Positions 21,801-55,369 of a DNA stretch of 64,000 bases are shown one piece after another. Both the position numbers and the translations under genes were made by a program. The number at the start of each line of letters is the position of its first letter. Positions within the stretch are counted from its first letter, which is position 1. This DNA is from Scyliorhinus canicula (taxonomy: Eukaryota): assembly GCF_902713615.1 (NCBI RefSeq), contig NW_024056011.1, forward strand, positions 62,001-126,000, written 5' to 3'. The notes under the pieces are model-generated. The model worked only from the letters and a program-made list of their open reading frames with translations. It did no database searches and was not told the origin of the DNA.

Positions 21801-24800
21801 TGCTGGCTGTGGGGGGCACTGGCAGTGCTGGCTGTGGGGTGAGCACTGGCAGTGCTGGCTGTGAGAGGAGCACTGGCTGTGCTGGCTGTGGGAGGAGCAC
21901 TGGTAGTGCTGGCTGTGGGCGGAGCATTGTCAGCGTTGGCTGTGGGCGGGGGGCACTGGCAGTGCTGGCTGTGGGGAGCACAGGCAGTGTTGGCTGTGGG
22001 GGAGAACTTGCACTGATGACTGTGGGGAGCACTGGCAGTGCTGCTGATGTGGGGAGCACTGGCAGTGCTGGCTGTGAGTGTGCACTGGCAGTGCTGGCTG
22101 TGGGAGGGCACTGACAATTCTGGCTGTGGGACGGCACTGGCAGTGCTGTCTGTGGGGGGAGCACTGGCAGAGCTGGCTGTGGGTGAGCACTGGCAGTGCT
22201 GGCTGTGGGGGGAGCATTGTCAGTGCTGGCTGTGGGGGGGGCACTGGCATTGCTGGCTGTGGGGGGAGCACTGGCAGTGCTAGCTGTGGGGGAGCACTGG
22301 CAGTGCTGGCTGTGGGAGAAGCACTGGTAGTGCTGGCTGTGGGGGGGGGGCACTGGCAATGCTGGCTCTGGGGGAGCACTGGCAGTGCTGGCTGCGGGCG
22401 GAGCACTGGCAGTGCTCGCTGTGGTGGGAGCACTGGCAGTGCTGGCTGTGGGGGAAGCACTTGCAATGCTGTCTGTGGGGGAGCACTGGCAATGCTGGCT
22501 GTGGTGGGGGCTCTTGCAGTGCTGGCTGTGGGGCACTGTCATTGCTGGCTGCGGGGGAGCACTAGCAGTGCTGGCTGTGGGGAGGGGGCACTCATGCTGG
22601 CTGTGGGTAGGGGCAGTGGACATTCTGGCTGTGGGGAGCACTGGCATGCTTGCTGTGGGTGAGCACTGGCAGTGCTGGCTGTGGGGGAGCACTGGCAGTT
22701 CTGGCTCTGGGGGAGGCACTGGCAGTGCTGGCTCTGGGGGAGGCACTGGCAGTGCTGGCTGTGGGGGGAATCACTGGCAGTGCTGGCTGTGGGCAGGCAC
22801 TGGCAGTGCTGGCTGTGGGGGAATCACTGGCACTGCAGGCTGTGGGGTGGGACTGGCAGTGCTGGCTTTGGGGGAGACTGGCAGTGCTGGCTGTGGGTGT
22901 GCACTGGCAGTGCTGGCTGAGGGAGGGCACTGACAGTTCTGGCTGTGGGAGGGCACTGACAGTGCTGCCTGTGGGGGGGAGCACTGGCAGAGCTGGCTGT
23001 GGGAGAAGCACTGGTAGTGCTGGCTGTGGGGGAGCATTGTCAGTGCTGGCTGTGGGGGGGGGGGCACTGGTATTGCTTGGCTGGGGTGGGGAGCACTGGC
23101 AGTGCTGGTTGTGGGGGGAGCACTGGCAGTGCCGGCTGTGGAGAGAGCACTGGCAGTGCTGGATGTGGTAGGTGAACTGGCAGTGCTGTCTGCGGCGGAA
23201 GCCCTGGTAGTGCTGGCTGTGGGAGGGCACTGGCAGTGCTGGCTGTGGGGGCAGCACTGGCAGTGCTGGTTGTGGGAGGAGCACTGGCTGTTCTGGCTGT
23301 GGGAGGAGCACTGGTAGTGCAGGCTGTGGGGGGGCACTGGCAGTGCTGGCTGTGGGGGGGCACTGGCAGTGCTGGCTGTGGGGTGAGCACTGGCAGTGCT
23401 GGCTGTGAGAGAGAACTGGCTGTGCTGGCTGTGGGAGGAGCACTGGTAGTGCTGGCTGTGGGCGGAGCATTGTCAGCGTTGGCTGTGGGCGGGGGCACTG
23501 GCAGTGCTGGCTGTGGGGGAGCACAGGAAGTGTTGGCTGTGGGGGAGAACTTGCAATGATGACTGTGGGGAGCACTGGCATTGCTGGATGTGCGGGAGCA
23601 CTGGCAGTGCAGGCTGTGGGTGGGGGCACTGGCAGTGATGGCTGTGGGGGGGCACTGGCAGTGATGGCTGTGGGGGGCACTGGCAGTGCTGGCTGTGGGG
23701 GGGCACTGGCAGTGATGGCTGTGGGGGGCTTTGGCAGTGCTGGCTGTGGGGGGGGTTCAGGCAGTGCTGGTTTTGTGGGGGAGCGCTGGCAATCCTGGCG
23801 TGGGGGAGCACTGGCATTGTTGGATGTGGTAGGTGCACTGGCAGTGCTGGCGGTGGGGGGGCACTGGCAAGCTGGCTGTGGGGGGCACTGGCAATGCTGG
23901 CTGTGGGGGAGCACTGGCAGTGCTGGCTGTGGGGTGGGGCACTGGCAGTGCTGTCTGTGGGTGGGTTCACTGGCAGTGCTGGCTGTGGGGTGGGCACTGG
24001 CAGTGCTGGCTGTGGGAGGGCACTGGCATGCTGACTGTGGGGGGAACACTGATAGTGCTGGCTGTGGGGGGAGCACTGGCATTGCTGACTGTAGGGGGGG
24101 CACTTGCAGTGCTGGCTCTGGGGAGCACTGGCAGTGCTGGCTGTGGGGATGGCACTGGCAGTGCAGGCTGTGGGGGAGCACTGGCAGTGCCGGCTGTGGG
24201 AGGGAGCACTGGCAGTGCTGGCTGTGTGCCGGGGGGGTGTACTGGCAGTGCTGGCTGTGGGGGAGCACTGGCAATGCTGGCTGTGGGGGAGGACTGGCAG
24301 TGCTGGCTGTGGGGGGAGCACTGGCAGTGATGACTGTGGGGAGGGGCACTGGCAGTGCTGGCTCTGGGGAGCACTGGCAGTGCTGGCTGTGGGATGGCAC
24401 TGGCAGTGCAGGCTGTGGGGAGCACTGGCAGTGCTGGCTGTGTGAGGGGAGCACTGGCAGTGCTGGCTGTGTGGGGGTGTACTGGCAGTGCTGGCTGTGG
24501 GGGGCACTGGCAATGCTGGCTGTGGGGGACTGGCAGTGCTGGCTGTGGGGGAGCACTGGCAGTGATGGCTGTGGGGAGGGGGCACTCAGTGCTGGCTGTG
24601 GGAAGGGGCAGTGGACATTCTGGCTGTGGGGAGCACTGGCAGTGCTTGTTGTGGGTGGCACTGGCAGTGCCGGCTTTGTGTGATCACTGGCAGTGCTGGC
24701 TGTGGGGGGCACTGGCAATGCTGGCTCTGGGGAGCCCTGGCAGTGCTGACTGTGGGGGGAGCACTGGCAGTGCTGGCTGTGGGGAAGCACTGGCAGTGCT

Positions 24801-27800
24801 GGCTCTGGGGGAGCACTGGAAGTGCTGGCTGTGGGGGAGCACTGGCAATGCTGGCTCTGGGGGAGCCCTGGCAGTGCTGACTGTGGGGGGAGCACTGGCA
24901 GTGCTGGCTGTGGGGAAGCACTGGCAGTGCTGGCTCTGGGGGAGGCAGTGGCAGTGCTGGCTGTGGCGGGATCACTGGAGGTGCTGGCTGTGGGAGGGCA
25001 CTGGCAATGCTGGCTGTGGGGGGAACCCTGGCAGAGCAGGCTGTGCGGTGGCTTGCAGTGTTGGCTGTGGGGGAGCACTGGCAGTTCTGACTGTGGGAGG
25101 GGGCACTCAGTGCTGGCTGTGGGGAGGGGCAGTGGACATTCTGGCTGTGGGAGCACTGGCAGTGCTTGCTGTGGGTGAGCACTGGCAGTCCTGGCTTTGT
25201 GTGTGCACTGGCAGTGCTGGCTGTGGGGGGAGCACTGGCAATGCTGGCTCTGGGGGAGCACTGGCAGTGCTGACTGTGCGGGTGCACTGACAGTGCTGGC
25301 TGTGTGGGGGAGCACTGGCAGTTCTGGCTCTGGGGGAGGCACTGGCAGTGCTGGCTCTGGGGGAGGCACTGGCAGTGCTGGCTGTGGCCAGGCACTGGCA
25401 GTGCTGGCTGTGGGGGGAATCACTGGCACTGCAGCCTGTGGGGGGGAGCACTGGCAGAGCTGGCTGTGGGAGAATCACTGGTAGTGCTGGCTGTGGGGGG
25501 AGCATTGTCAGTGCTGGCTGTGGGGGGGGGGCACTGGCATTGCTGGCTGTGGGGGGGGAGCACTGGCAGTGCTAGCTGTGGGGGGGAGCACTGGCAGTGC
25601 TGGTTGTGGGGAAGCACTGGTAGTGCTGGCTGTGGGGGGGGGCACTGGCAGTGCTGGCTCTGGGGGAGCACTGGCAGTGCTGGCTGTGGTGGAGCACTGG
25701 CATTGCTGGCTGTGGTGGAGCACTGGCAGTGCTGGCTGTGGGGGAAGCACTGGCAGTGCTGCCTTTGGGGGCACTGGCAGTGCTGGCTGTGGTGGGGGCT
25801 CTTGCAGTGCTGGCTGTGGGGAGCACTGTCATTGCTGGCTGCGGGGGAGCACTAGCAGTGCTGGCTGTGGGGAGGGGGCACCCAGTGCTGGCTGTGGGGA
25901 GGGGCAGTGGACATTCTGGCTGTGGGGAGCACTGGCAGTGCTTTCTGTGGGTGAGCACTGGCAGTTGCTGGCTTGTGTGAGCACTGGCAGTGCTGGCTGT
26001 GGGGGAACACGGCAATGCTGGCTCTGGGGGAGCCCTGGCAGTGCTGACTGTGCGGGGTGTACTGACAGTGCTGGCTGTGGGGAGCACTGGCAGTTCTGGC
26101 TCTGGGGGAGGCACTGGCAGTGCTGGCTGTGGCCAGGCACTGGCAGTGCTGGCTGTGGGGGGAATCACTGGCACTGCAGCCTGTGGCGGGAGCACTGGCA
26201 GAGCTGGCTGCGGGAGAATCACTGGTAGTGCTGGCTGTGGGGGAGCATTGTCAGTGCTGGCTGTGGGGGGGGGGGACACTGGCATTGCTGGCTGTGTGGG
26301 GGAGCACTGGCAGTGCTAGCTGTGGGCGGAGCACTGGCAATGCTGGCTGTGGGAGCACTGGTAGTGCTGGCTGTGGGGGGGGGGGGGCACTGGCAATGCT
26401 GGCTCTGGGGGAGCACTTTCAGTGCTGGCTGTGGTGGGCACTGGCAGTGCTGGCTGTGGGGGAAGCACTTGCAATGCTGTCTGTGGGGGAGCACTGGCAA
26501 TGCTGGCTGTGGTGGGGCTCTTGCAGTGCTGGCTGTGGGGAGCACTGTCATTGCTGGCTGCGGGGGAGCACTAGCATGCTGGCTGTGGGGGGGGGGCACC
26601 CAGTGCTGGCTGTGGGGAGGGGCAGTGGACATTCTGGCTGTGGGGAGCACTGGCAGTGCTTGCTGTGGGTGAGCACTGGCAGTGCTGGCTTTGTGTGAGC
26701 ACTGGCAGTGCTGGCTGTGGGGGGAGCACAGGCAATGCTGGCTCTGGGGGAGCCCTGGCAGTGCTGGCTGTGCGGGGTGCACTGACAGTGCTGGCTGTGG
26801 GGGAGCACTGGCAGTGCTGGCTCTGGGGAGGCACTGGCAGTGCTGGCTCTGGGGGAGGCACTGGCAGTGCTGGCTGTGGCCAGGCACTGGCAGTGCTGGC
26901 TGTGGGGGGAATCACTGGCACTGCAGGCTGTGGGGTGGGACTGGCAGTGCTGGCTTTGGGGTGAGACTGGCAGTGCTGGCTGTGGGTGTGCACTGGCAGT
27001 GCTGGCTGAGGGAGGGCACTGACAGTTCTGGCTGTGGGAGGGCACTGACAGTGCTGCCTGTGAGGGGGAGCACTGGCAGAGCTGGCTGTGGGGGAAGCAC
27101 TGGTATGCTGGCTGTGGGGGAGCATTGTCAGTGCTGGCTGTGGGGGGGCACTGGCATTGCTGGCTGTGGGGGGGAGCACTGGCAGTGCAGGCTGTGGGGG
27201 GAGCACTGGCAGTGCTGGCTGTGGGGGAGCACTGAAGTGCTGGCTGTGGGGGGGGGGGCACTGGCAATGCTGGATCTGGGGGAGCACTGGCAGTGCTGGC
27301 TGTGGGGGGAGCACTGGCAGTGCTGGCTGTGGGGGAAGCACTTGCAATGCTGTCTGTGGGGGAGCACTGGCAATGCTGGCTGTGGTGGGGGCTCTTGCAG
27401 TGCTGGCTGTGGGGAGCACTGTCATTGCTGGCTGCGGGGGAGCACTGGCAGTGCTGGCTGTGGGGAGGGGGCACCCAGTGCTGGCTGTGGGGAGGGCAGT
27501 GGACATTCTGGCTGTGGGGAGCACTGGCAGTGCTTGCTGTGGGTGAGCACTGGCAGTGCTGGCTTTGTGTGAGCACTGGCAGTGCTGGCTGTGGGGGGAG
27601 CACAGGCAATGCTGGCTCTGGGGGAGCCCTGGCAGTGCTGGCTGTGCGGGGTGCACTGACAGTACTGGCTGTGGGGGAGCACTGGCAGTTCTGGCTCTGG
27701 GGGAGGCACTGGCAGTGCTGGCTCTGGGGAGGCACTGGCAGTGCTGGCTGTGGCCAGGCACTGGCAGTGCTGGCTGTGGGAGCACTGGCAGTGCTGACTG

Positions 27801-30800
27801 TGGGGGAATCACTGGCACTGCAGGCTGTGGGTGGGACTGGCAGTGCTGGCTTTGGGGTGAGACTGGCAGTGCTGGCTGTGGGTGTGCACTGGCAGTTGCT
27901 GGCTGAGGGAGGGCACTGACAGTTCTGGCTGTGGGAGGGCACTGACAGTGCTGCCTGTGAGGGGGAGCACTGGCAGAGCTGGCTGTGGGAGAAGCACTGG
28001 TAGTGCTGGCTGTGGGTAGAGCATTGTCAGTGCTGGCTGTGGGGGGGGCACTGGCATTGCTGGCTGTGGGGGGGCACTGGCAGTGCAGGCTGTGGGGAAG
28101 CACTGGCAGTGCTGGCTGTGGGAGAAGCACTGGTAGTGCTGGCTGTGGGGGGGCACTGGCAATGCTGGCTCTGGGAGCACTGGCAGTGCTGGCTGCGGGC
28201 GGAGCACTGGCAGTGCTGGCTGTGGTGCGGGAGCACTGGCAGTGCTGGTTTGGGGAGGGGAGCACTGGCAGTGCTGGCTGTGGTGGTGGGCTCTTGCAGT
28301 GCTGGCTGTGGGGAGCACTGGCAGTGCTGGCTGCCTGGGAGCACTAGCAATGCTGGCTGTGGGGAGCACTGGTAGTGCTGGCTTTGTGGGGAGGGAGCAC
28401 TGGCAGTTCTGGCTGGTGGGGAGGGAGCACTGGCAGTGCTGCTTGTGGGGCACTGGCAATGCTGGATCTGGGGGAGCACTGGCAGCGCTGGTTGCGGGGG
28501 GAGCACTGGCAGTGATGGCTGAGGTGGTAGCACTGGCAGTGCTGGCTCAAGGGGGGAGCCCTGGCAGTGCTGGCTGTGACCGGGCACTGGCAGTGCTGGC
28601 TGTGGGTGGGGGGGAGGGCACTGGCAGTGCTGGCTGGGGAGGGAGCACTGGCAGTGTTGGCTGTGGTGGTAGCACATGCAGCGCTGGTTGGTGGGGGGGG
28701 GGCACTGGCAGTGCTGGCTGTGGGGGAGCACTGGCAGTGCAGGCTGTGTGTGGGAGCACTGGCAGTGCTGGCTGTGGGGGAGCACTGGCAGTGCTGGCTG
28801 TGGGTGGCACTGGCAGTGCTGGCTGTGGGGTGGGGAACTAACAGTGCTGGCTGTGGGAGGGCACTGGCAGTGCTGGCTGTGGGGGGAGCACTGGCGGTGC
28901 TGGCTGGGGGGGGAGCACTGGCAGTGCTGGCTGTGGGAGTGCACTGGCAGTGCTGGCTTTGAGGAGCACTGGCAGTGCTGGCTGTGGGGGGAGCACTGGC
29001 AATGCTGGCTGTGGGGGCACTGGCAGTGCTGGCTGTGGGGGTGGTCTTGCAGTGCTGGCTGTGTGGAGCACCGTCATTGCTGGACGTGGGGAGCACTGGC
29101 AGTGCTGGCTGTGGGGGAGCACTGGCAGTACTGGCTGTGGGGGAGCACTAGCAGTGCTGGCTGTGGGAGGAGCACTGGCAGTTCTGGCTGTGGAGAGGGA
29201 GCACTGGCAGTGCTGCTTGTGTGGGAGCACTGGCAACGCTGGCTCTGGGGGAGCACAGGCAGTGCTGGCTGTGGGGGGAGCACTTGCAATGCCGTTTGTG
29301 GGGGAGCACTGGCAATGCTGGCTGCGGGGGAGCACTGGCATTACTGGCTGTGGGGAGGGCACTGGCAGTGCTGGCTCTGGGAGGCACTGGCAGTGCTGGC
29401 TGTTGACAGGGCACTGGCAGTGCTGGCTGGGGAGGGCACTAGCAGTGCTGGCTGTGGGGGAATCACTGGCACTGCAGGCTGTGGGTGGGACTGGCAGTGC
29501 TGGCTTTGGGGTGAGACTGGCAGTGCTGGCTGTGGTGTGCACTGGCAGTGCTGGCTGAGGGAGGGCACTGACAGTTCTGGCTGTGGGAGGGCACTGACAG
29601 TGCTGCCTGTGAGGGGGAGCACTGGCAGAGCTGGCTGTGGTAGAAGCACTGGTAGTGCTGGCTGTGGGGGGAGCATTGTCAGTGCTGGCTGTGGGGGGGG
29701 GGGCACTGGCATTGCTGGCTGTGGGGGGGAGCACTGGCAGTGCAGGCTGTGGGGGAAGCACTGGCAGTGCTGGCTGTGGGAGAAGCACTGGTAGTGCTGG
29801 CTGTGGGGGGGGGCACTGGCAATGCTGGCTCTGGGGAGCACTGGCAGTGCTGGCTGTGGTGGGAGCACTGGCAGTGCTGGCTGTGGGGGAAGCACTGGCA
29901 GTGCTGTCTGTGGGGAGCACTGGCAGTGCTGGCTGTGGTGGGGCTCTTGCAGTGCTGGCTGTGGGGAGCACTGTCATTGCTGGCTGCGGGGGAGCACTAG
30001 CAGTGCTGGCTGTGTGGAGGGGGCACCCAGTGCTGGCTGTGGGGAGGGGCAGTGGACATTCTGGCTGTGGGAGCACTGGCAGTGCTTGCTGTGGGTGAGC
30101 ACTGGCAGTGATGGCTTTGTGTGAGCACTGGCAGTGCTGGCTGTGGGGGAGCACAGGCATGCTGGCTCTGGGGGAGCCCTGGCAGTGCTGACTGTGCGGG
30201 GTGCACTGACAGTGCTGGCTGTGGGGGAGCACTGGCAGTTCTGGCTGTGGGAGGGCACTGGCATGCTGGCTCTGAGAGGAGCACTGGCAGTGCTGGCTGT
30301 GGCCAGGCCTGGCAGTGCTGGCTGTGGCCAGGCACTGGCAGTGCTGGCTGTGGGGGAATCACTGGCACTGCAGGCTGTAGGGTGGGACTGGCAGTGCTGG
30401 CTTTGGGGTGAAACTGGCAGTGCTGGCTGTGGGTGTGCACTGGCAGTGCTGGCTGAGGGAGGGCACTGACAGTTCTGGCTGTGGGAGGGCACTGACAGTG
30501 CTGCCTGTGAGGGGAGCACTGGCAGAGCTGGCTGTGGAGAAGCACTGGTAGTGCTGGCTGTGGGGAGCACTGGCAGTGCTGGCTGTGGGGCGGGGCACTG
30601 TCAGTGCTGGCTGTGGGGGGGCACTGGCAGTGCAGGCTGTGGGGGAAGCACTGGCAGTGCTGGCTGTGGGAGGAGCACTGGTAGTGCTGGCTGTGGGGGG
30701 GCACTGGCAATGCTGGCTGTGGGGGAGCACTGGCAGTGCTGGCTGCGGGCGGAGCACTGGCAGTGCTCGCTGTGGTGGGAGCACTGGCAGTGCTGGCTGT

Positions 30801-32724
30801 GGGGGAAGCACTTGCAATGCTGTCTGTGGGGGAGCACTGGCAATGCTGGCTGTGGTGGGGGCTCTTGCAGTGCTGGCTGTGGGGAGCACTGTCATTGCTG
30901 GCTGCCTGGGAGCACTAGCAATGCTGGCTGTGGTGGCTGGCAGTGCTGGTTGTGGGGAGGGAGCACTGGCAGTGCTGGGTGTGGGGAGGGAGCACTGGCA
31001 GTGCTGCCTGTGTTGGGAGACTGGCAGTGCTGGCTGTGGGGGGAGCACTGGCAGTGCTGTTAGTGGGGGAGCACTGGCACTGTTGGCTGAGGTGGGAGCA
31101 CTGGCAGTGCTGGCTCAAGGGGGAGCCCTGGCAGTGCTGGCTGTGACCGGGCACTGGCAGTGCTGGCTGTGGGTGGGGGGAGGGCACTGGCAGTGCTGGC
31201 TGGGAGGGAGCACTGGCAGTGTTGGCTGTGGTGGTAGCACATGCAGCGCTGGCTGGTGGGGGGGGGCACTGGCAGTGCTGGCTGTGGGGGAGCACTGGCA
31301 GTGCTGGCTGTGTGGGGGAGCACTGGCAGTGCTGGCTGTGGGGGGAGCACTGGCAGTGCTGGCTGTGGGGGGCACTGGCAGTGCTGGCTGTGGGGTTGGG
31401 ACACTAACAGTGCTGGCTGTGGGAGGGCACTGGCAGTGCTGGCTGTGGGGGAGCTCTGGCAGTGCTGGCTGTGGGGGAACACTGGCAGTGCTGGCTGTGG
31501 GAGTGCACTGGCAGTGCTGGCTGGGTGGGACACTGGCAGTGCTGGCTGTGGGGGAGCACTGGCAGGGCTGGCTGTGGGGAGCACTGGTAGTGCTGGCTGT
31601 GGGGGGTGGTCTTGCAGTGCTGGCTGTGTGGAGCACCGTCATTGCTGGACGTGGGGAGCACTGGCAGTGCTGGCTGTGGGGGAGCACTAGCAGTACTGGC
31701 TGTGGGGGAGCACTAGCAGTGCTGGCTGTGGGGAGGGAGCACTGGCAGTTCTGGCTGTTGAGAGGGAGCACTGGCAGTGCTGCTTGTGTGGGAGCACTGG
31801 CAACGCTGGCTCTGGGGGAGCACAGGCAGTGCTGGCTGCGGGGGGCACTGGCAGTGCTGGCTGTGGTGGGAGCACTGGCAGTGCTGGCTGTGGGGGGAGC
31901 ACTTGCAATGCCGTCTGTGGGAGCACTGGCAATGCTGGCTGCGGGGGAGCACTAGCAGTGCTGGCTGTGGGGGCACTAGCCATGCTGTCTGTGGGGGAGC
32001 ACTGGCAATGCTGGCTGTGGGTGGGGGCTCTTGCAGTGCTGGCTGTGGGGGAGCACTGTCGTTGCTGCTGCGTGGGAGCACTGGCAGTGCTGGCTGTGGG
32101 GGAGCACTGGCAGTGCTGGTTGTGGGGAGGGAGCACTGGCAGTGCTGGCTGTGGGGAGGGAGCACTGGCAGTGCTGCCTGTGTGGGGAGCACTGGCAGTG
32201 CTGGCTGTGGGGGGAGCACTGGCAGTGCTGGTTGCGGGGGGGGGAGCACTGGCAGTGGTGGATGTGGGGGGAGCACTGGCAGTGCTGGCTCAGGGGGAGC
32301 TCTGGCAGTGCTGGCTGTGACCGGCGGCACTGGCAGTGCTGGCTGTGGGGTGGGGTGGGGGGGGGGGAGGGCACTGGCAGTGCTGGCTGGGGGGAGGGAG
32401 CACTGGCAGTGCTGGCAGTGGGGGTGCCCTGGCAGTGCTGGGTGGGGTGCCCTGGCAGTGCTGGCTGTGGGAGGGGCACTGGCAGTGCTGGCTGCGGTGG
32501 GGGGAGCACTGGCAGGGTTGGCAGTGGGGCGAGCACTGTCAGTGCTCGCTGCCGGGGGTACTGGCAGTGCTGGCTGGGGGAGGGAGTACTGGCAGTGCTG
32601 GCAGTGGGGGTGGGGGGTGGGTGCCCTGGTAGTGCTGGCTGTGGGAGGGCACTGGCAGTGCTGACTGTGGGAGGGCACTGACAGTGATGGCTGTGATGGT
32701 GGCACTGGCAGTGCTGGCTGTGAA
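18862..32724. repeat. 13.9-kb G-rich satellite, unit about 26-30 bp (GGGAGCACTGGCAGTGCTGGCTGTGGG)
   Basis: Hundreds of tandem units with variable G-run length and recurring variant blocks. Confidence 0.99.
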
Positions 32725-33142
32725 TGTAGCCATCTAAGATGGACACCAGTCTACAAAATGGAGAACCGCAAAGAATACAGGGAAAAACAGCCATAGTAAG
32801 GACACACAGCTTGTAGAAGCATTTAGCATTTAGCACGTACAAAAACCGGTTTCAAGGCAGTTGCAGAAACCCAGCCAAAGGTGCAAATAGGAAAACGATC
32901 TGCATACTAATGAGATGATACCGGCCCAGTCCCAGATACAATAGAAACATTTTAAGTATCAATCGATACTTTTCTATAGCTACCCAGCCAGGATGGCGCC
33001 AGCAAAACCAGAACAATGAGCCCTAGGAACCGCCCCAGCCATCGAGAAACGACCCCAGGATAGGGGAGTTCAAAACGTATCGATCGGGAAAGACCCAATC
33101 GATGAGGGAACCGCCCCAAGAGGGCCTGGACCTCCTGGGACC

Positions 33143-33149
33143 TATAAAA
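33143..33149 (+). promoter_or_regulatory. LTR TATA box
   Basis: TATAAAA inside the LTR, upstream of the poly(A) signal. Confidence 0.65.
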
Positions 33150-33491
33150 AGAAGGTCCCGCACATGAATCGGTCTGTTGCACCTTGACTCCAGCCTAGGT
33201 CTCTTGCATCCTGACTCCAGCCTACGAATCCAGCATCCAGACTCCAGTCTTTACCCCGGCCGTCGAGCATCAGCCATCGACTAATAAGTGCCAAAGCAAC
33301 GATCACTACGTGACCCAGGCATTGCTTGTACTCTTGCCGACTTTTAATACCCAGAAGTTGCAGACCAAGAACGGGACAAAGGCCTTGTTCCTGACCTTGC
33401 CTGTTCCTTTCTAGATAAGTATTTAGTTGTTTTAATAGTAGAAGTAAGTTGGTCTTTTAGCGTGTGCATGAGTATTTATTATATTTGTTAT

Positions 33492-33497
33492 AATAAA
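33492..33497 (+). terminator. LTR polyadenylation signal
   Basis: AATAAA 343 nt downstream of the end of the TATA box. Confidence 0.6.
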
Positions 33498-33694
33498 CAC
33501 TAAGTGTTTGGACTTACTAATCGGTGTATAGATTTATTGCTTTGAACTTGACCTTGATAACTTGTGACGGTGTCTCTTACGGCACCTGGCGACTCCAGAG
33601 CATAGATACAGATACAGAGCCAAGCCAGTGTTAAGCATATGTCCTTTATTGGAGGCGTGTTAATCATACTAACAGTAAAATGAGCAACATTTAG

Positions 33695-33712
33695 TGGCGA
33701 CTCCGCCGGGAC
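33695..33712 (+). promoter_or_regulatory. Primer-binding site, tRNA-Arg(UCU)
   Basis: TGGCGACTCCGCCGGGAC is the reverse complement of GTCCCGGCGGAGTCGCCA, the 3' end I recall for a vertebrate tRNA-Arg(TCT). Confidence 0.85.
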
Positions 33713-33999
33713 GCGGTTAGATGTGGCACCCCCACTCCGTGAGAACCCCAGAAATTTGAATTAGAAATCTGATTGGAAAAAAGGAAAAATCACAAGTGGT
33801 CAATGTGTTCAAACCAATAACGATAATTCGGAAGTGTGTTTTGTGCATGCGTACTAACAGGGTTGTAAGGTTAACCTGAGAGCTTTTTGTTGCGACGAAC
33901 TGTCGGGAGTTTTGTAAGCTGAACAGAGCAAAAGCCTTACCCGTCTTTTAAAACATTACCTCAACACCCCCTGTTCCAAATTTAAGTAATAAAGAGAAA

Positions 34000-35753
34000 A
34001 TGGCCATGCAGGCAATGGAACGCCTCATGAACCCAGAGCAGTTCTTGGTCGCAGCGACCAGCAGTAGCCGAGTAGGCCAGTGCCCCGTGTGGGAGCTGGA
34101 ACTCCGCAAGTATCTAAAAGGAAAGGGATGGCCCATTTGGAATGAGTTCTGTATGAATGAGGAGACAGATCCCGGGAGTATAGGACATACTTGGTGGGAG
34201 AACCTCTCTCAAATTCATAAGAAAAATCCGAGTAAAGCACGCAAGCCGATGGCAATCGTGTCCTGTTTGGCACAGTTGCGAGGCACTGAGGAGGTCGTTC
34301 GGACGCTCCGAGCAGAGTTAGAAGAGAGGAAGAGAATGAGTAAAGTGGATGTCAGGGACATCGAGAAGGAAAACTTAGAACTAAGAGGGAAGCTGGCAGA
34401 GAAGGGGAGAGAGGTGGATGATGCCAAGAGGGCACATCAGTCGTGTCTAGCCCATCTGAGCACTTCCCAAACCCAATACGAAAAAGCCTATCAAGATGTG
34501 CAACGTGCAGTCCTGATAAGAGAGGAATCGGAAAAGCAGGTAGAGGCATTGCAGAGGCAATGCTCTGACCTTAAAGCAGCTTTGAGAGCACTCCATGCTG
34601 CCACCACTGAGCAAAGACAGAGCACAGTAGACCATGCAAAATGTAGGAAGCAGATTGCGGAGCTGCAATCGTTGCTTTAAGTGCAGAATGGGTTCCAAAG
34701 CACCTTTGGAACGCAGTTAGATGAGGAGAATGCCCCAGATTGGCAGGAATTGAGCGAAACCGTGCAGCGTTATGTTCAGGGAACGTGTGCGCCAGCAGCG
34801 CAACAAAAGAGGAAAGCGCCCCAACCCCCCCCCCCCCCCAGATCAGATAGCACCCGCGCCTATGAACCCAGTCACCACCCAAAGAAAAGCAACTACCGAC
34901 GGCGCACCCGACATCACCTACACCACCCCCTTAACTGTAACCCAACTCAGGGACGCGTGTGAGAAAATCACTCCGTTTCTCCCCCACCGCAGACCCCCAC
35001 CAATTTTTCGCAAAGGTTAAACAGCAGGCGACCATGTACGGCCTGGACGATAGAGAGCAGGTTAAGCTCACGGTTCTGAGCTTAGACCCATCAGTAGTTG
35101 CAGCCCTCCCCGACCCACAGAACGTTGGAGGAGGCACACCAGAGGAAATGCACACCTCCATTTTAGCTGCAATAGGGTATAACAGAGGAGACCCAGTTGA
35201 AGGCCTAAATAAATGTAGGCAAAAGAAAACAGAGCATCCCACAGCATTTGCAGGAAGGCTGTGGATCCATTTCACTGCAGTTTTTAGCGAATTAGACCGA
35301 GCGCATTTAAACCATGACAACATGGTTAAATGGACCCGCACCATAATCTCCCATGCCACAGATGCAGGACAGAGTGCTTGCAATAGTTACAACCCCTCAG
35401 AGGAGGACCATAACGAGAAATGGGTTCTGAAAAGATTGTCCCGCGCTTGGGAACAATCGGTTCCGGGCAAAGTCAAGGTAAAGACCCCAGAGGAAGCTCA
35501 GGCTGCAGCGGATATCCAGGCAGTGAGAGCGCACCAAAACCCCGCATGGGTAAACAATGGGAAGAACAGCCCCCCACAGAAGTCGCAGGAATGCTACAAC
35601 TGTGGTCAGTTAGGACATTTTGCTAAAGAATGCAATGCACCACAGAGATCACAGAGAGGCCAGCAGACAGGCACTCTGAACAGACATAGAGCGAAGCCTA
35701 TCCATAGTATAGGGATACAGTCAGGACAGACCAATGTGGACGGAACGGACTGA
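34000..35753 (+). pseudogene. gag: gag, disrupted by one stop (34678-34680) and two frameshifts in C-runs
   Basis: Long coiled-coil N-terminal half; MHR-like CRQKKTEHPTAFAGRL; CYNCGQLGHFAKEC knuckle at 35592-35633. Confidence 0.9.
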
Positions 35754-35973
35754 CGGTGTTCGGGCTCCCCCACTTGGGTCTGTGACACCCTTTGGGACCA
35801 ATCCGGAAGACCGAAGTCACAGCGAAGGTTAGAGGGAAGCCCATAGAGTTACTTTGGGACACAGGAGGGTCCCGCACCACAATTGATTCCACCACCACGG
35901 CACAGGCAGACACGTGGCCGACCACATCCACCATTACCCTCAGCGGTTTTACAGGACACTCACAGCAGGACAC
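35754..35973 (+). pseudogene. pro: Retropepsin protease, N-terminal part
   Basis: Reads VTAKVRGKPIELLWDTGGSRTTI, with the catalytic DTG at 35858-35866. Confidence 0.88.
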
Positions 35974-36472
35974 ATTGGGTGGACATTTATCCTGTGGGAG
36001 CCAATCTAGTGATTCTGTGAGAGCACTGTTCTGTCTAACACTGCCAGTATATTAGGCGTTTGGTGAATATAAAACGAGGCAGGAAAATAATCCTCGCCAT
36101 GAAACAACTTTCCAATGGATAGAGTGTAATACAAGAGTAAATTCATCATTTTGAACAAAACAGACCATTAACGTTTGGAAATTGCAGTGCAGCGATGTTC
36201 ACATGTAGACCTGTAGTGTAAGGTTAATGGGGGGATTGTTGGGTTACGGGTTACGTGGGTTTAAGTAGGGTGATCATTGCTCGGCACAACATCGAGGGCC
36301 GAAGGGCCTGTTCTGTGCTGTACTGTTCTATGTCTATGTCTATTACTGGGACGTTGGTAAAATATTAAACTCAATATTACCCACATGATAGCAGAGCAAA
36401 TACAAATTTCCTAGAACTACTTATAGGTATTAACAAGTATTAATATAATCTCCAAATCAACAATGATTGTAC
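35974..36472 (-). repeat. Inverted, diverged paralog of about 5250-5640 / 41990-42382, carrying a SINE/CR1-tail insert at about 36211-36340
   Basis: ATTGGGTGGACATTTATCC matches the reverse complement near 42365-42382; GTTGGTAAAATATTAAACTCAATATTACCCACATGATAGCAGAGCA matches the reverse complement near 5313-5358. Confidence 0.85.
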
Positions 36473-36760
36473 TTTAGTGGCCATTACTGAAACATGGTTA
36501 AAGGATGGTCACGACTGGGAGTTAAATATCCGAGGGTATCACACAGCATGAAATGAAATTGCAGCATTTACATCAGGGAGACACCGTACTCAGGCTTCAA
36601 CTGATGATCCAAGTTGGAGAGACATAAGGACATTCGCACCAAAGGAATCAAGAAGCAGCAATAGGACATTCAGCCCTGTGAGCCTGTTCCACCATTTAAT
36701 AACATCACGGCTGATCTGATAGTGACCTCAAATCTGCATCCCACCTACACCTGATAACTT
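36473..36760. mobile_element. CR1 endonuclease scrap (+, about 36473-36540) and CR1 3'-UTR (-, about 36615-36760)
   Basis: VAITETWLKDGHDWELNIRGY on the + strand; a CR1-tail sequence abuts the ZNF fragment. Confidence 0.7.
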
Positions 36761-36770
36761 GTCGATAACC

Positions 36771-36887
36771 ATGGAGAAACCGTGGAAATGTGGGGACTGT
36801 GGGATGGGATTGAATTACCCATCTGAATTGGAAACACAAGGACGCACTCATACCAGGGAGAGGCCATTCATCTGCTCTGTGTGTGGC
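36771..36887 (+). pseudogene. C2H2 zinc-finger fragment, duplicate
   Basis: Identical translation to 31-147. Confidence 0.85.
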
Positions 36888-38767
36888 ACTGTGCGAGCGC
36901 TAGAGTCCCAGTCTGTGCGGAGTTGGCACGTTCTCCCCGTGTCTGCGTGGGATTCCATCGGGTGCTCCGGATTCCTCCCACAAATCTCGAAAGATGTGCA
37001 GTTCTGTAATTTGGACATTCTGAATTATCCGTCTGTGCACCAAAACAGGCGGCGGAATGTGGCGAAAGGGATCTTTTCACAGTGACTTCATTGCAGTGCT
37101 AATGTCAGCTTACTTGTGACAAAAATATTATTACATTAGTTTAGGTTAATCACCACCCCATATGAGTGATAATCGTTTTAGACCTTGGCATGGAGTCATG
37201 GACAGTTAGCGGTTTACAATACAGAAAGATGCCATTCATCCACCATATCTGCGATGGCAATCAGGTACCTATCTATTCTAAGATAGTCCATAGATTGTCA
37301 TCCTATCATAAAACTATAAAACACAGAAGCAGGATTCGATGATTAGGCCAATCGAGTGTGCTCCACATTCAATCACGACTGTTATGTTTCTAAAAGCCTA
37401 TCTCCTGCCTTCTCGCCATAACCCCATATCACCTTATTAATCAACAAACTATCTATCTCTGTTAGCCTGGTTAGAAAGAGGGAAAGATCAAGGTAATTGA
37501 ATGTCCCAACCACATTTTAGAGTAAAACTCCGTCGATGTATTCCAATTAACCTGATTCGATCCATTTAGTTGGAAGCCAATGGGGTGAGATTGCACTGAG
37601 AGATTATATTCGGCACATGTTGGCTTCATGTTGTCGATTAAAGGCAATGACCCATCGTGGAGAGACATGAGACAGAACCAGTTAGGAAAAGGGGACAGAT
37701 ATCAGATACAGGAAAACTGGAAAACTCTATGAACATATTTCGCATGTCATTATATTTCGAGATTAGGGGGAATCTTTCCTAATTATGAACATGGATATCA
37801 TGATGACCTTTTTCCTAATATAACTGATGAAGAATCAAATGTCAAAAACAATCATTACTGGAATCCGTTGATCTATTTGTGTCTTTGCCTCTATTTCTGT
37901 GCTGTGTCGATGGGGAAATAGTTGTTGTGCTTTTGTCAGTGTATAATCTAATCTGAGACTTCTATTTCTGTGTTTATTTACATAAACACCTCACTGGTTA
38001 CAATGAAGTGTTCGTATCAGCAAAACGAGATAAACACAATCATTTATTCATTAGGTTCAACTCAAAATAGCGGTTTATTTTAAGAATATTGACAGTTGGT
38101 TGAAACGTATAGAAACATCCATTAGAACAGATGTTACTTAATTGAAATAAAAAATACATTTAAATTAAGTATAATTCTGGAAGTTCTGATGCCTCAATTA
38201 ATAAATCATCTTTAACCAGGCTGTTATTCCACTGAATATTAATTTAATTGAAACATTAACCGAATTAAAGGAGATAAATTAAAACATCAGGCAGAGGAGT
38301 GACCCATAGTCACATTAATCTCAGATCTTTCAACATATTACAACCTGCATTTTAAAATGTAAACGTTTGGAAAGAGCTTACTTTTGTAAAACGCTCTACC
38401 CGACCTCAGGTCATCCCAACGCTCTGAAAACTCACTGATATATTTTAGCTGAATTTAGTTACTGCTGTAATGTTGGAAAAGGAGCAGAGAATTTGTGCAC
38501 AGCAAGCTCCCACAAACTGAGATGTGATAAGCGACCAGCTAATCTGAGTTTTATGTTCAAGAACGGACATTGGTCGAGGATACTGGGAAAAGCAGCTCTG
38601 CTCTTTAGCATTATGTCAATGAGGTAATCCACCTGAAATGTGAATCTCTTTCTCTCTCTGCTGATGCTCACTGACCTGCTGAGCAGCCTCTTTTTGTTTT
38701 TATTTTAGATTTCCGGAACCTGCAGCACTTTGCACAGTTTTAAACATTTATTCTCGGAATATGACCC

Positions 38768-40425
38768 TCACTGGGTTAAATCGCTGGCTTTTAAAGCAGA
38801 GTAAGCAGGCCAGCACCACGGTTCGATTCCCGTACCAGCCTACCCGGAGAGGCACCGGAATGTGGCGACTAGGGGCTTTTCACAGTAACTTCATTGACGC
38901 CAAATCATGACAATAAGCGATTTGCATTTTCAAGCCATAAGATGTAGGAGCAGAAGGTGGCCATTCGGCCCATGGAATATGATCTGCCATTCAATGAGAT
39001 TGTGGTTGATCTGATAAAATCCTCAACTCCACAAGAGTTGAGAACAAGAGTCGGCAGGTCATGTTACAGTTGCATAGGACTTTGGTTGGGCCACATTTGG
39101 AATACTGCGTGCAGTTCTGGTCGCCACATTACCAGAACGATGTGGATGCTTTAGAGAGGGTGCAGAGGAGGTTCACCAGGATGTTGCCTGGTATGGAGGG
39201 TGCTAGCTATGAAGAAAGGTTGAGTAGATTAGGAATGTTTTCGTTGGAAAGACGGAGGTTGAGGGGGACCTGATTGAGGTCTACAATATGAAATGAAAAT
39301 GAAATTAAATGAAAAACGCTTATTGTCACAAGTAGGCTTCAATGAAGTTACTGTGAAAAGCCCCTAGTCGCCACATTCCGGCGCCTGTCCGGGGAGGCTG
39401 GTACGGGAATCGAACCGTGCTGCTGGCCTGCTTGGTCTGCTTTAAAAGCCAGCGATTTAGCCCAGTGAGCTAAACCAGCCCCTTATGAGAGGTATGGAGA
39501 GGGTGGATAGCAACAAGCTTTTTCCAAGATTGGGGTTGTCAATTACAAGGGGTCACGATTTCAAGGTGAGAGGGGGAAAGTTTAAGGGAGATGTGCGTGG
39601 AAAGTTTTTTACGCAGAGGGTGGTAGGTGCCTGGAAATCTTTGCCAGTGGAGGTGGTAGAGGCGGGCACGATAGCATCATTTAAGATGCATCCAGACAGA
39701 TATATGAACGGGCGGGGGACAGAGGGAAGTAGACCTTGGAAAATAGGAGATAGGTTTAGATAAAGGATCTGAATCGGCACAGGCTGGGAGGGCCGAAGGG
39801 CCTGTTCCTGTGCTGTAATTTTCTTTGTTCTTTGTTCTTTTGTTCCACCTTTCTGCCTTATCCCCATAGCCCTGGATTCCCTTACTAATGAAAAATCTGT
39901 CTGTCCCAGTCTTGGACATATTTATTAACCCGGCCTCTCCAATTCTCTGCACCATAGAATCACTCCCCAGTGAGAGACGAAATTCCGCTCCATCCTCATC
40001 TGAAATGAGCGACACCTCACTCTGAGATGGCGCCCTACGGCCCCAGACTCTCCCACAAGCAGAAACATCCTCGAGCATCCACACTATGAAGCTCCTTGAA
40101 AATACTACATATCTCAGCAAGTTCGCCTCTCATTCTTCAAAACTCCAATGCGTGTAGTTCTTCCCTACTTAAACTCTCCTCATGTCAGTCTCTGTGATGC
40201 AATTGGTCAATGTTTTACGCTGCAAACAGAGAGGTCTGTAGTTTCAAGACTATCCAGGGCCGGATTCTTCTCTATTTGATGACAGGCGCAGTAACGATGG
40301 GCCGGAGGAAATCTTTATGTGCTGTGAAATTCCAGCTACCGATGAAAATCCATCCACACCCGAGATTAACCTAATGAACCTTCTCTGGACTGCCTCCAAA
40401 ATATCTATCCTGAGCTAAGGAGACC
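38768..40425. mobile_element. Duplicate of the SINE plus nested CR1/CR1/SINE cluster at 2028-3685
   Basis: Near-identical sequence at offset 36740. Confidence 0.9.
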
Positions 40426-40784
40426 AAAACTGCTCACATCATTGCAATATGCCCTGGTTGAATTTGTACTCGAGTCTCTGGAGTAATAGTTCAGGCCTCC
40501 AGATTACCAGTAATAATATTTCGAAACACTCCTCAGATTGTAATATCATCACATCCAAAAGATGGAGCAAGTGAACATAAAATACTCCTGCATTGGATCA
40601 CAGGTCTGGATCTGTTGTGAGAGGTGATATTGATTCCACTGAGACACACTGTTAATCTATCATGGTTTTCATTTTGACATTATATTCTCAAATATTGCTC
40701 AGTGTATCTAAATTTCTAATTCTGGGTCCCGCCTTACATGGGTCAATTTAAAATTCAGAGGCTAGTCTTTTATTAGTCTTGTGT

Positions 40785-41700
40785 TTTATTCTTGTTATAA
40801 ATTTAGAGTACACAATTATTTTTTTCCAAATCAAGGGGCAATTTTGCGCAGCCAATCCACCTAATCTGCACATCCTTGGGTTTTGGGGGTGAAACCCACG
40901 CAGAGACGGGGAGAATGTGCAAACTCCAGGCGGACAGGGACCGAGAGCCGGGATCGAACCTGGCAGCAGTGCTAACCATTGTGCCACCGTGCTGCCTAAT
41001 TCGGACACGATGGTATTGGTGAATGGGAATTCCACTGGCTCCATAGAAAATGTCAGTAATTCCAAAAATAGCATCTGAACACAAGCAAGACGTAAACATA
41101 TATAGAACTGGGTCTTCGCACTGCATGAGCTGCATGGTCAGAGCGGTTGGAAGCTGGGATCCTTTTCCTTAGAACCGAGCAGTTTTTGGGAGGCGTGGTA
41201 AAAATGTTCAAAATTATTTAGGGTTTTGTTTGGTTAATTAGGAAGAAAAGTCATTCACTGGCAGGAGGGTCAGAAATCAGAAGACACTAATTTATGAAAT
41301 ATTAATTTCCCCCTCTGATTCTAAACCTATCAAATTGTAACAGGACGAGACAGGGCGGATGCAGAAAGGATGTGTCCGATGGCGGGGAAGGTAGAACCAG
41401 GGGTCACAGTCTCAGGATACGGGGCAAACTATTTAAAACTGAGATGAGGAGTAATATCTTCACCCTGAGATTTGTGAATCTGTGGAATTCTATACCACAT
41501 AACGAAGTTGACTCCAAAGTATTGTACGTTTTCAAGGAGGAGTTAGATAAAGTTCTTGGGGATCAAAACTCTGAAGGGACCAAATCATATGGGGGAAAAG
41601 TGGGAACAGGTTACTGAAGTGGATTATCAGCCATGATCAGAATGAATAGCAGAGCAGGCGAAGGGCAGAATGGTCTACTCCTGCTCTATTTTCTATGTCA
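40785..41700. mobile_element. Duplicates of the family A SINE (-, about 40785-40997) and the CR1 3' end (+, about 41350-41700)
   Basis: Near-identical to 4045-4257 and 4610-4960. Confidence 0.85.
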
Positions 41701-43952
41701 CTTTATCACATCAAATCTGTTTCTTCACATGTTAAATGAGACCCTGTCTTTATTTCTCTTAAAGTAACCCCTGTCACTGTCTATACTACACTGTACTCTT
41801 TGTGCTACACTCAATTAATAATACGCGAGAGCATGCATTGGATTATATTACATTAAGTTCCGCCTCTATTATATACCACAGGAATTTGTATCTTTACATC
41901 ACACTCGGGCCTGTGTCTGTTGATATTACACCAGACCAATACCCTCTCGATATTATAAATGATTGAATATGTTTGCTTGTTTCTCCGAGTACAATCATCG
42001 TTGATTTTGAGATTATGTTAATATCTATAAGTAGTTGTATTAAATGCGTACTTGCTCTGCTATCATGTGGGCAATATTGAGTTGAATATTTTACCAACAT
42101 CCCAGGAATGAACTGGTCTTGAGAGACATGTCTACATGTGAACACCGGTGCACTGCAATTTCCAACATTTAGTGGAAATCTCTGTTTTGTTCATAATGAT
42201 TAATTGACTCTTCTGTTATACTCTATCGATTGGAAAGTTTTTTTCACGATGATGATTATTTTCCTGCCTCGATTTATATTAACCAATCACCTGATGCACT
42301 GGCAGAGTTAGACAGAACCGTGTTCTCACAGTATCGCCACGATGGTAATGGTGGGCTCCCAAAGGAGAAATGTCCACCCAATCATATAACACTTAGCTGG
42401 TTAAGAAGAGCAACTAAAATCGCTGCAAAAACGTATTGGCCGTTCGTGCATGTGAAACATTTTTCTTAAATTTTGCAACTAAAATCGATCAAGACGTATT
42501 GTTATCTTTAGAATTATTTGGTTGATTTTGTGATATCTTCATATGTCTCGGCCCTCAGCTCTGGTATTCATTCCCTATTCCTCGTTACCTCAATTCCCTT
42601 ATTAAAATCATCCCATAACCGGCCTCATCAACCACGTTTTTAATCATCTGGCCTAATAACTCTGTACACGTATATTAATCCAGACCTTGACCAGGAATGG
42701 CTGCAATAGACCCTGCCTCAGTTTATAATATTCTAGATACTGTATGAATAATCACTGCTTTAGATCCTCTCTCATTTAAGTTAATGAAACTTTGTATCAG
42801 TAATTGCTGCACTTGAACCTGTCTCTGTTTATGTTAATCTAGACTCTGTATCAGTCATCACTGCACGGGATCCAATCTCAATTTAGGTTAATCTACGCCG
42901 TTTTAGTGATCATTGCTTTAAACTCTGTCATAGAGTCATTGTTTCTGAGAGTTTTATAGTTCTAAAGAAAGGTGCCCTTCCACGCATCATCTCTCACCGA
43001 CGGTAATCAAGCACCTATCTATTCTAATATCGTCCATAGATTGTCTTCCTACCATAAAATCATAAACCATAGAAGCAGAACCCGGCCTTTCAGTCCATCG
43101 AGTCCGCTCCGCATTCAATCATGATTGTTATGTTTCTACTCCCCATTCTCCTACCTTCTGCCCATAATACCTGGCCCCCTTATTAATCAATAACCTGTCT
43201 ATCTCTATCTTAAAGACACTCAGTGATTTGGCCTCCACAGCCTGCTGCGGGACTGAGTTCGACAGATTCAAGACCCTCGAGCTGAACAAATTTATCCTCT
43301 TCTCAGTTTTGAAGGTACACCCCTTAAATCTGAGGCTGTACCCTTGGGTTCTAGTTTCTCCTACTAGGCCTCTTGGCTGCTCTATAAGTTTCAAGGAGAC
43401 CCTACCCCACCCCTGCCCCGCGCCACCCTCCCCTCACAGCAGCTCATCTTTCTAAACTCTATCCAGCACAGACCCCTAGTCCTCAACCGCTCCTCATATG
43501 ACAAGTCCATCATTCCGAGGATCAGTCTTGTGAATCTCCTCTGGAGCTTCTCCAAGGCCAGCACATCCTTTCTTAGATAAGGCGACAAAAAATGCTCATA
43601 ATATTCCAAATGGGGTCTGACCAGAGCCTTATAGAGCCTCAGCAGTTACATCCCTGTTCCTGTAATCTAGCCCTCGCAACATGGATGCTAAACTTGCAAT
43701 TGCCTTCCCAGCTGCCAACTGAACCTGCATGTTAACCTTAAGAGAATCCTCAACTAGAATTCCTAAGTACATTTGAGCTTCTGATTTCCTCAACCCTACC
43801 CTAATTAGAAAATATTCTATGTTTCCTCCAAAATGCAGAACCTCACACCTTTCTACATTGTATTCCATCTGCCACTTCTTTGCACACTCCCTTAGCCTGA
43901 CCAGGTCTTTCTACAGCCTATCTTCTTCCTCAGCACAATCTGTCCCTCTATG

Positions 43953-45575
43953 TCTCCTCATCTGGAAAGACACTGCTTGATTAGGGATAGTCAGCACGGA
44001 CTGAGGGGTAGGTCTTGCCTTACAAATCTTATTGACTTCTTTGAGGAGGTGACAAAGCATGTGGATGAAGGTAAAGCAGTGGATGTAGTGTACATGGATT
44101 TTAGTAAGGCATTTGATAAGGTTCCCCATGGTAGGCTTATGCAGAAAGTAAGAAGGCATGGGATAGTGGGAAATTTGGCCAGTTGGATAACGAACTGGCT
44201 AACCGATAGAAGTCAGAGAGTGGTGGTGGATGGCAAATATTCAGCCTGGAGCCTAGTTACCAGTGGCGTACCTCAGGGATCAGTTCTGGATCCTCTGCTG
44301 TTTGTGATTTTCATTAATGACTTGGATGAGGAAGTTGAAGGGTGGGTCAGTAAATTTGCAGATGATACGAAAATTGGTGGAGTTGTGGATAGTGAGGAGG
44401 GCTGTTGTCGGCTGCAAAGAGACATAGACAGGATGCAGAGCTGGGCTGCGAAGTGGCAGATGGAATTTAACACTGACAAGTGTGAGGTTGTCCATTTTGA
44501 AAGGACAAATATGAATGCGGAATACAGGGTTAACGGCAGGGTTCTTGGCCACGCTAAATTGAGAGATCTTGGGGTCTATGTTCATAGATCTTTGGAAGTT
44601 GCCACTTAAGTGGATAGAGCTGTGAAGAAGGCCTATGGTGTGCTAGCGCTCATTAGCAGAGGGATTGAATTTTAGAGCCGTGAGGTGATGATGCAGCTGT
44701 ACAAAACCTTGGTAAGGCCACATTTGGAGTACTGTGTGCAGTTCTGGTCGCCTCATTTTAGGAAGGATGTGGAAGCTTTGGAGAGGGTGCAAAGGAGATT
44801 TACCAGGATGTTGCCTGGAATGGAGAGTAGGTCTTACGAGGAAAGGTTGAGGGTGCTAGGCCTTTTCTCATTAGAATGGAGAAGGATGAGGGGTGACCTG
44901 ATAGAGGGTTATAAGATGATATGGGGAATAGATAGAGCAGACAGTCAGAGACTTTTTCCCCGGGTGGACAACAAACCACGTGGGCTTGAGTAGGGTGATC
45001 ATTGCTCGGCACAACATCGAGGGCCGAAGGGCCTGTTCTGTGCTGTACTCTTCTAATTCTAATTCTAATTCTAATTCTAATTACAAGGGGACATAAATTT
45101 AAGGTAAATGGTGGAAGATATAGGGGGCATGTCAGAGGTAGGTCCTTTACCCAGAGAGTATTGGGGACATGGAATGCACTGCCTGTGGAAGTAGTTGAGT
45201 CGGAAACGTTAGGGACCTTCAAGCGGCTATTGGATAGGTACATGGATTATGGTAGAATAATGGAGTGTAGATTAATTTGTTCTTAAGGGCAGCACGGTAG
45301 CATTGTGGATAGCACAATTGCTTCAGAGCTCCAGGGTTCCGGGTTCAATTCTGGCTGGGGTCGCTGTCTGTGCGGAGACTGCACATCCTCCCCGTGTGTG
45401 CGTGGGTTTCCTCTGGGTGCTCCGGTTTCCTTCCACAGTCCAAAGATGTGCAGGTTGGGTGGATTGGCCATGATAAATTGCCCTTAGTTTATGATCTATG
45501 ATTAACCTAGGACAAAAGTTTGGCACAACATTGTGGGCCGAAGGGCCTGTTCTGTGCTGTATTTCTCGATGTATC
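43953..45575 (+). mobile_element. Young 5'-truncated CR1 LINE with RT domain, present only in copy 2
   Basis: ORF 43950..44609 contains DFSKAFDKV, SGVPQGSVL and FADD. Nested CR1 tail with (TTCTAA)n at about 44975-45080. Confidence 0.95.
45287..45488 (+). mobile_element. Family A SINE nested in the CR1 3'-UTR
   Basis: GGGCAGCACGGTAGCATTGTGGATAGC head and V-SINE-like core. Confidence 0.9.
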
Positions 45576-55200: not shown

Positions 55201-55369
55201 TTGCAATCCACTTCGCAAATCCAAGGAGAAAAGCTGTTTGTTTTCTCAGAAGTAGCGGTGTGGTGTGCGTGTGTATGTGCGTGTATGTGTGTGTGAGGGA
55301 GGTGGGGGGCGGTGAGTATGTTGGGGGGGGGGTGGTGGTTTGGGGGGAGACCTCAAAACATCAATGATG

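Follow-up and report, generated by a model that had tools for sequence, protein, structure and literature searches.

A decayed provirus in Scyliorhinus canicula represents a young, high-copy shark endogenous retrovirus family with a tRNA-Arg(UCU) primer and likely readthrough of a UGA codon into protease

The window analysed here, a 64,000-nucleotide stretch of a Scyliorhinus canicula contig, holds a dead member of a shark endogenous retrovirus (ERV) family that is young and present in many copies. The family uses tRNA-Arg(UCU) as its primer and likely reaches Pol by readthrough of a UGA stop codon, helped by the CGG that follows it and by a predicted stem-loop; we put the probability of this reading at about 85%. 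What is likely new, judged from sequence, is an env-less shark ERV family of the SnRV grade with a probable type II readthrough signal.

The window element is a 3'-truncated, decayed provirus, consisting of a 5' LTR, a primer binding site (PBS), a broken gag and the start of pro (Table 1). Its gag is dead: a TAA interrupts the frame at 34678-34680 and frameshifts lie near both 34832 and 34981, damage on which the sequence-only reading that first drew attention to the element was silent. The sequence GAC-TGA-CGG of this copy occupies 35748-35756, and an Asp_protease_2 match (E 3e-5) lies downstream of the gag stop in another frame. Similarity to the family stops at about 35976; RT, RNase H, IN, the 3' ORF and the 3' LTR are missing.

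Table 1. Features of the provirus fragment, in window coordinates
Feature	Position	Strand	Remark
5' LTR, 965 nt, TG...CA	32725..33689	+	matches both ends of long family copies
TATAAAA in 5' LTR	at 33143	+	
AATAAA in 5' LTR	at 33492	+	
PBS, 18-nt complement of mature tRNA-Arg(UCU)	33695..33712	+	
Leader box, 12-nt complement of the anticodon arm of spliced tRNA-Arg(UCU), across the exon junction	33755..33766	+	
gag, broken in window copy (581 codons in long copies)	34000..35753	+	
Predicted coiled-coil part of Gag, approximate	34282..34717	+	
MHR core of capsid	35220..35258	+	consensus match; capsid model resembles retroviral capsids
Single CCHC zinc knuckle	35589..35633	+	
gag stop and type II readthrough context TGA-CGG	35751..35756	+	
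Predicted stem-loop from +12, 8-nt spacer; base GGGCU/AGCCC, inner helix CUGUGA/UCACAG	35762..35842	+	
5' part of pro, frameshifted near 35815, then truncated	35754..35976	+	

The fragment sits in a 36.7-kb tandem duplication, and near-identical twins of it occur on the same contig and on one other small contig. Window positions 1-7226 and 36741-43956 form a repeat of 98.7% identity at a spacing of 36,740 bp, with the provirus fragment duplicated along; this is either a segmental duplication or assembly redundancy. A C2H2 zinc-finger-like fragment, seen by eye in the ORF list, lies within the duplicated unit at 36726-37085 (and 1-345). A minisatellite of about 14 kb, made of 26-27-bp G-rich units, fills 18860-32722 and ends exactly where the LTR starts, and 78-bp units with 92-93% identity form a tandem array at 54262-55341.

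The family is a young, high-copy and transcribed shark endogenous retrovirus. It numbers at least 710 copies in the 4.2-Gb genome, 710 being those with exact junction flanks. The 49 long element loci used below were taken as best matches rather than at random. Long copies of about 9.8 kb read LTR-gag (581 codons)-TGA-pol (about 1408 codons)-LTR, and Pfam finds in their pol, in order, protease, RT, a degenerate RNase H tether, a second RNase H and integrase. With the polypurine tract (PPT), also present, the layout is of Retroviridae type (LTR-PBS-gag-pro-RT-tether-RNase H-IN-PPT-LTR). Of the 29 copies tested, 23 have LTR pairs of 94-100% identity, target duplications of 4 bp (TSDs) flank 7 copies whose two ends are both covered, and both genes have evolved under purifying selection, with dN/dS of 0.08 for pol and 0.10 for gag (15 of the 49 copies, as non-independent pairs). 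Poly(A) RNA reads (four runs from two studies, with the same species label) cover the family end to end, and in the three single-end runs they are strongly biased to one strand, which under most stranded protocols is the sense strand; these are reads of 100-151 nt from a multi-copy family, mapped on one copy with no assignment to the window copy. At L077:7400-7800, right after the end of pol, RNA depth rises several-fold with no splice joint listed there, which could be due to oligo-dT bias, a subgenomic RNA or deleted copies.

Gag homologues 72-81% identical to the family occur in Scyliorhinus torazame, and a more distant one in Heterodontus. Four remote Gags (P0190, P0192, P0263 and P0189, horn shark being among the sources) are 25-44% identical in CA and have in common with the family Gag its coil, a DH-x-x-C motif and the capsid, and in P0190 and P0192 also the CCHC; by their sequences these point to a wider lineage. 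An RT scan of IMG/VR gave no match. ERV-Spuma.0-Sca was considered as the same element and rejected, having a different LTR start and a gene layout with env.

The sequence-only reading proposed that Gag ends at a leaky UGA, with protease continuing in the same frame. The terminal TGA is present in 697 of the 710 exact-flank copies, a count that reflects a few progenitors, not independent selection, because the copies share ancestry. CGG comes next in 92 among the 100 copies listed, and most of the others resemble CpG decay. When distinct junctions from all fetched loci are counted instead (the junction is held by 90 of 102 loci), TGA is found in 65 of 66 and CGG in 60 of 66, this set including a subfamily only about 64-77% identical in Gag. 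Three Gags of S. torazame (73-78% identical) stop at the same residue. Protease indeed follows in the gag frame past the UGA, at a stop-to-catalytic-Asp distance of 108 nt in all 41 scorable long copies (49 examined). Neither a sense codon, a pro in the -1 frame nor a slippery site is found at the junction, as could have been expected had the proposal been wrong. A -1 frameshift is accordingly rejected: pol keeps the frame of gag, and the three copies tested have no XXXYYYZ heptamer around the junction.

Third positions are nearly frozen in the 11 codons 3' of the stop, and nowhere in gag-pol is synonymous conservation stronger than in the stretch to which they belong. When 1540 overlapping 11-codon windows are ranked by third-position conservation in 46 copies, the top four all span the junction, and the junction window, named beforehand, has p = 2.5e-5. 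Such constraint could serve another cis element. It does not name its own cause, and this leaves room for an account in which the UGA is a hard stop, Pol comes from an mRNA spliced from a gag exon to pro or from a start of its own, and the conserved stretch serves as a signal for splicing or packaging. Foamy viruses have a separate pol start (PMC8278194), and foamy Pol is among the top solved-structure matches (E 1e-71). We nevertheless consider this account improbable. Pol offers no Met ahead of the protease active site, its earliest one being codon 110, 74 codons beyond the catalytic Asp (DTG at 36). No gag-pro joint is among the splice joints listed for the four RNA runs, in which the junction is evenly covered, though reads of this kind cannot exclude a rare spliced pol mRNA. 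Pol also lies exactly in the gag frame, and context and spacing fit type II readthrough. With pol in frame and with no slippery heptamer, early Met or joint, there is no evident route to Pol except through the stop.

Readthrough of the UGA into protease is thus the likely solution, because the in-frame layout, the conserved stop, the type II hexamer UGACGG with its open frame downstream, the synonymous constraint and a predicted stem at the position known from VEEV and CTFV all argue for it. Most ribosomes would terminate at the UGA and release Gag; a few percent would pause at the stem, accept a near-cognate tRNA at the UGA and continue into PR-RT-RH-IN.

The stem-loop is the less certain part of this signal. 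The same basal stem, from +12 to about +93, appears in seven of seven folds, with modest z-scores (-0.7 to -2.6). In an alignment of 18 rows (one of them mis-registered and counted as gaps), 98.9% of the cells in the stem pair, with wobble changes and 2 compensatory pairs, but both of these come from a single row, and, among related sequences, shuffling attains the observed values in 14-23 of 500 trials. These modest z-scores and the weak covariation could mean that the UGA-CGG context suffices and that the stem-loop is fortuitous or serves some other role; some type II sites, such as that of PSIV, are described as having no structure requirement (PMC13517186). We regard this as rather unlikely, since constraint falls on both basal arms (+12..+16 and +89..+93), the distal AGCCC arm being frozen as well, while third positions between them, from +39 to +87, are free to vary. 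The two UGACGG viruses that have been studied, moreover, require the stem, and a stem start at +12 with three G-C pairs is common to MoMLV, VEEV and CTFV (PMC13517186).

The primer is tRNA-Arg(UCU), as the sequence-only reading had suggested from the PBS. The PBS is perfectly complementary to the 3'-terminal 15 nt of a tRNA-Arg(tct) gene in the genome with CCA appended, and the assignment is confirmed both by this gene and by element copies that bear spliced tRNA sequence. The gene carries an intron. Among 11 matches to a PBS search, 9 are element copies, and in 8 of those the PBS continues as an intron-less copy of the tRNA up to the anticodon (the ninth has a 7-nt extension); a second isodecoder gives the same kind of extension in 3 of the 4 loci fetched, out of 10 matches. 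Leaders with spliced tRNA-Arg(UCU) copied to the anticodon belong to young copies (L071-L079, L103, L104 and L106) and involve two isodecoders, and two extended copies mix the PBS of one isodecoder with the T-arm and variable loop of the other.

The leader of ordinary copies includes the 12-nt box, which complements the anticodon arm as it reads after splicing; none of 5000 shuffled leaders matches over 12 nt, and against the unspliced tRNA gene only 7 nt match. On the simplest reading, reverse transcriptase would sometimes pass m1A58, and the over-long plus strand would land on this box. In lentiviruses a short over-extension sequence adjoins the PBS, and HIV-1 products reaching the anticodon are described as non-functional (PMC13191261). 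The over-extended shark copies reveal the priming tRNA in the genome itself, and they suggest that products of the kind called non-functional in HIV-1 can integrate. The PBS is highly variable among L013-L032 and L090-L102, often 19-20 nt long and with bulges in its pairing to the tRNA, and this holds even where the LTRs of a copy are 99.9% identical; we can only guess that this is escape from silencing by tRNA fragments or zinc fingers.

Several features of Gag noted at first sight bear out on closer analysis. There is no Gly2 myristoylation signal, the protein starting M-A-M-Q at the ATG at 34000. The predicted coiled coil covers residues of about 95-240, a part that in one long copy is free of Pro, has 39% E/K/R/Q and shows a hydrophobic fraction at heptad positions a/d of 0.48, against 0.20-0.45 in other registers, and a full-length Gag model of low confidence (pLDDT 42) has one long helix at 118-205. 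The MHR-like motif conforms to the core consensus QX3EX4(phi)X2R (PMC8278194, Table 2). The zinc knuckle is likewise real and single (one zf-CCHC, E 1.3e-7), and a model of the capsid (pLDDT 70) finds its best counterparts in retroviral capsids, with weak E-values (MLV CA in PDB, 1.3e-3).

No env with SU and TM is present in any of the 13 copies scanned (from 49 long copies, in a family of more than 700). The longest ATG-initiated ORFs in their 3' regions measure 74-220 aa and have no CX6CC. Loss of env is common in ERVs (PMC12440569), and because no env is seen the family would spread within germ cells as a retrotransposon. In 37 of the 49 long copies the env position holds an ORF with one shared transmembrane motif. 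An example is a 117-aa ORF with a signal peptide and a single transmembrane segment at L077:8229-8579; from its hydrophobic N-terminus the protein, of about this length, passes through a short Ser/Thr-rich part and a Trp-rich stretch to a single membrane helix and then a basic tail. Purifying selection is indicated by a dN/dS of 0.26 in this frame, while the other frames give 1.0 and 1.56. The protein matches no Pfam family, and a search of the Atlas gave only leads under 0.9. It is likely either a shrunken env with a membrane role or an accessory protein. Somewhat short of even odds, we would extend the reading as a whole to an undescribed and still mobile shark lineage whose UGA-CGG and +12 stem-loop are convergent with the type II signal of alphaviruses and coltiviruses, in which env has been replaced by a selected, functional mini-protein of 117 aa (for fusion, budding or immune interference) and the distal anticodon-complementary box serves to rescue plus strands that were over-extended, with tRNA copies left behind in the genome.

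The tree of RT plus tether comprises 54 rows (52 chosen proteins and 2 shark rows) and 397 columns, and was built without named foamy, ERV-L, XtERV-S or class II references; an earlier quick tree kept 103 of 174 rows after thinning. Rows were labelled class I-like by a Pfam accession that we take to be Gag_p30. Loki labels were given by motif matches to the supplement of PMC7947760. The RT groups with retroviruses and not with Ty3/Gypsy (support 100/99), and the family falls among non-Loki retroviruses (100/99), close to Pol proteins of frogs and coelacanth that bear the annotation NYNRIN-like. In the tree topology the class I-like rows fall into starred clades that leave out the shark rows, which upholds the earlier statement that the element is not a typical gamma or epsilon ERV. 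The same statement offered a lokiretrovirus-like lineage as a hypothesis, and some points speak for it: a coiled-coil Gag is described for the Loki-related BHIKHARI (bioRxiv 10.1101/2024.03.25.586437), and the family has a dual RNase H and top matches annotated NYNRIN-like. It is nonetheless very improbable. Loki-type rows form their own clade (100/100) and forcing the shark rows into it is rejected (AU p = 0.00015); the RT motif is LPQG rather than the CPFG of Loki; and none of the 13 long copies scanned has an env resembling the fusion proteins of Mononegavirales.

The RT thus lies outside both Loki and class I, and from its sequence the family sits in an SnRV/Ovex1-related grade. A clade with SnRV itself was not recovered, nor is a sister relation rejected (AU p 0.095); both lie in the same grade outside class I and Loki. 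The family has the 4-bp TSD, zinc finger and GPY/F motif found also in class I (gamma/epsilon). By the class-defining table of PMC4299795 these exclude ERV3/ERV-L and ERV4 (5-bp TSD, no Gag zinc finger), the family having 4-bp TSDs and one CCHC, and they fit the unclassified SnRV/Ovex1-related group. The traits of a foamy-like ERV, namely no Cys-His box, a Lys primer and a separate pol start (PMC5210030), are not those of the family. According to PMC6001957, clade Huo infects every major lineage of vertebrates.

The closest relatives in RT and tether are the frog and coelacanth NYNRIN-like Pol proteins, 50-58% identical and in the same part of the tree; unlike the family, the coelacanth protein has a Gly/Arg-rich stretch in place of the Gag CCHC. 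The RT core of SnRV is 48% identical by BLASTP (51-55% by HMMER). SnRV reportedly has an Arg primer and a large Gag coiled coil, as Hart is said to have described in 1996. Like the family, SnRV has YVDD and an in-frame gag stop, but its junction is UAG-GGC (PMC13517186), and it differs further in a full env, several accessory ORFs and the absence of a supported sister relation in the tree. XtERV-S (class III, Xenopus) resembles the family in its in-frame gag-pol TGA, lack of a myristoylation signal, MHR and tether, and differs in a Ser primer, absence of a CCHC, YIDD, dUTPase and a full env; the account in PMC8278194 describes no cis element at its junction. ZFERV, SSSV and RMEV have UGA at the gag-pro junction (UGACGA in ZFERV), but are class I-related, and the passages on them in PMC13517186 describe no stimulatory structure.

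The sequence-only reading therefore overstated how new the UGA itself is: published junctions with an in-frame UGA include those of ZFERV, SSSV, RMEV and XtERV-S (PMC13517186, PMC8278194), and SnRV-like ERVs are known in a chimaera (CmiERV lineage I of the elephant shark; PMC4422223). Neither the family nor a retroviral UGA-CGG stem-loop is reported in the literature searched; the family may have a name in Repbase/Dfam, in subscription papers or in bioRxiv supplements, which fell outside this scope. The family adds a young, expressed, high-copy shark member to the poorly classified SnRV/Ovex1 grade. A 2026 review calls readthrough beyond gammaretroviruses unverified and its cis elements unclear; here hundreds of natural variants mark the readthrough signal to the base, so that the question is directly testable in a reporter.

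The combination of UGA-CGG and stem-loop has so far been demonstrated in alphaviruses and coltiviruses. VEEV and CTFV have, like the family, UGA-CGG, an 8-nt spacer and a stem from +12 with three opening G-C pairs, and CTFV also matches in UGA CGG UGU and a structure of about 80 nt (PMC13517186). These are unrelated RNA viruses in which the signal has been measured, whereas that of the shark family is predicted. If the prediction is true, retroviruses use both solutions, the UAG-pseudoknot and the UGA-CGG stem-loop.
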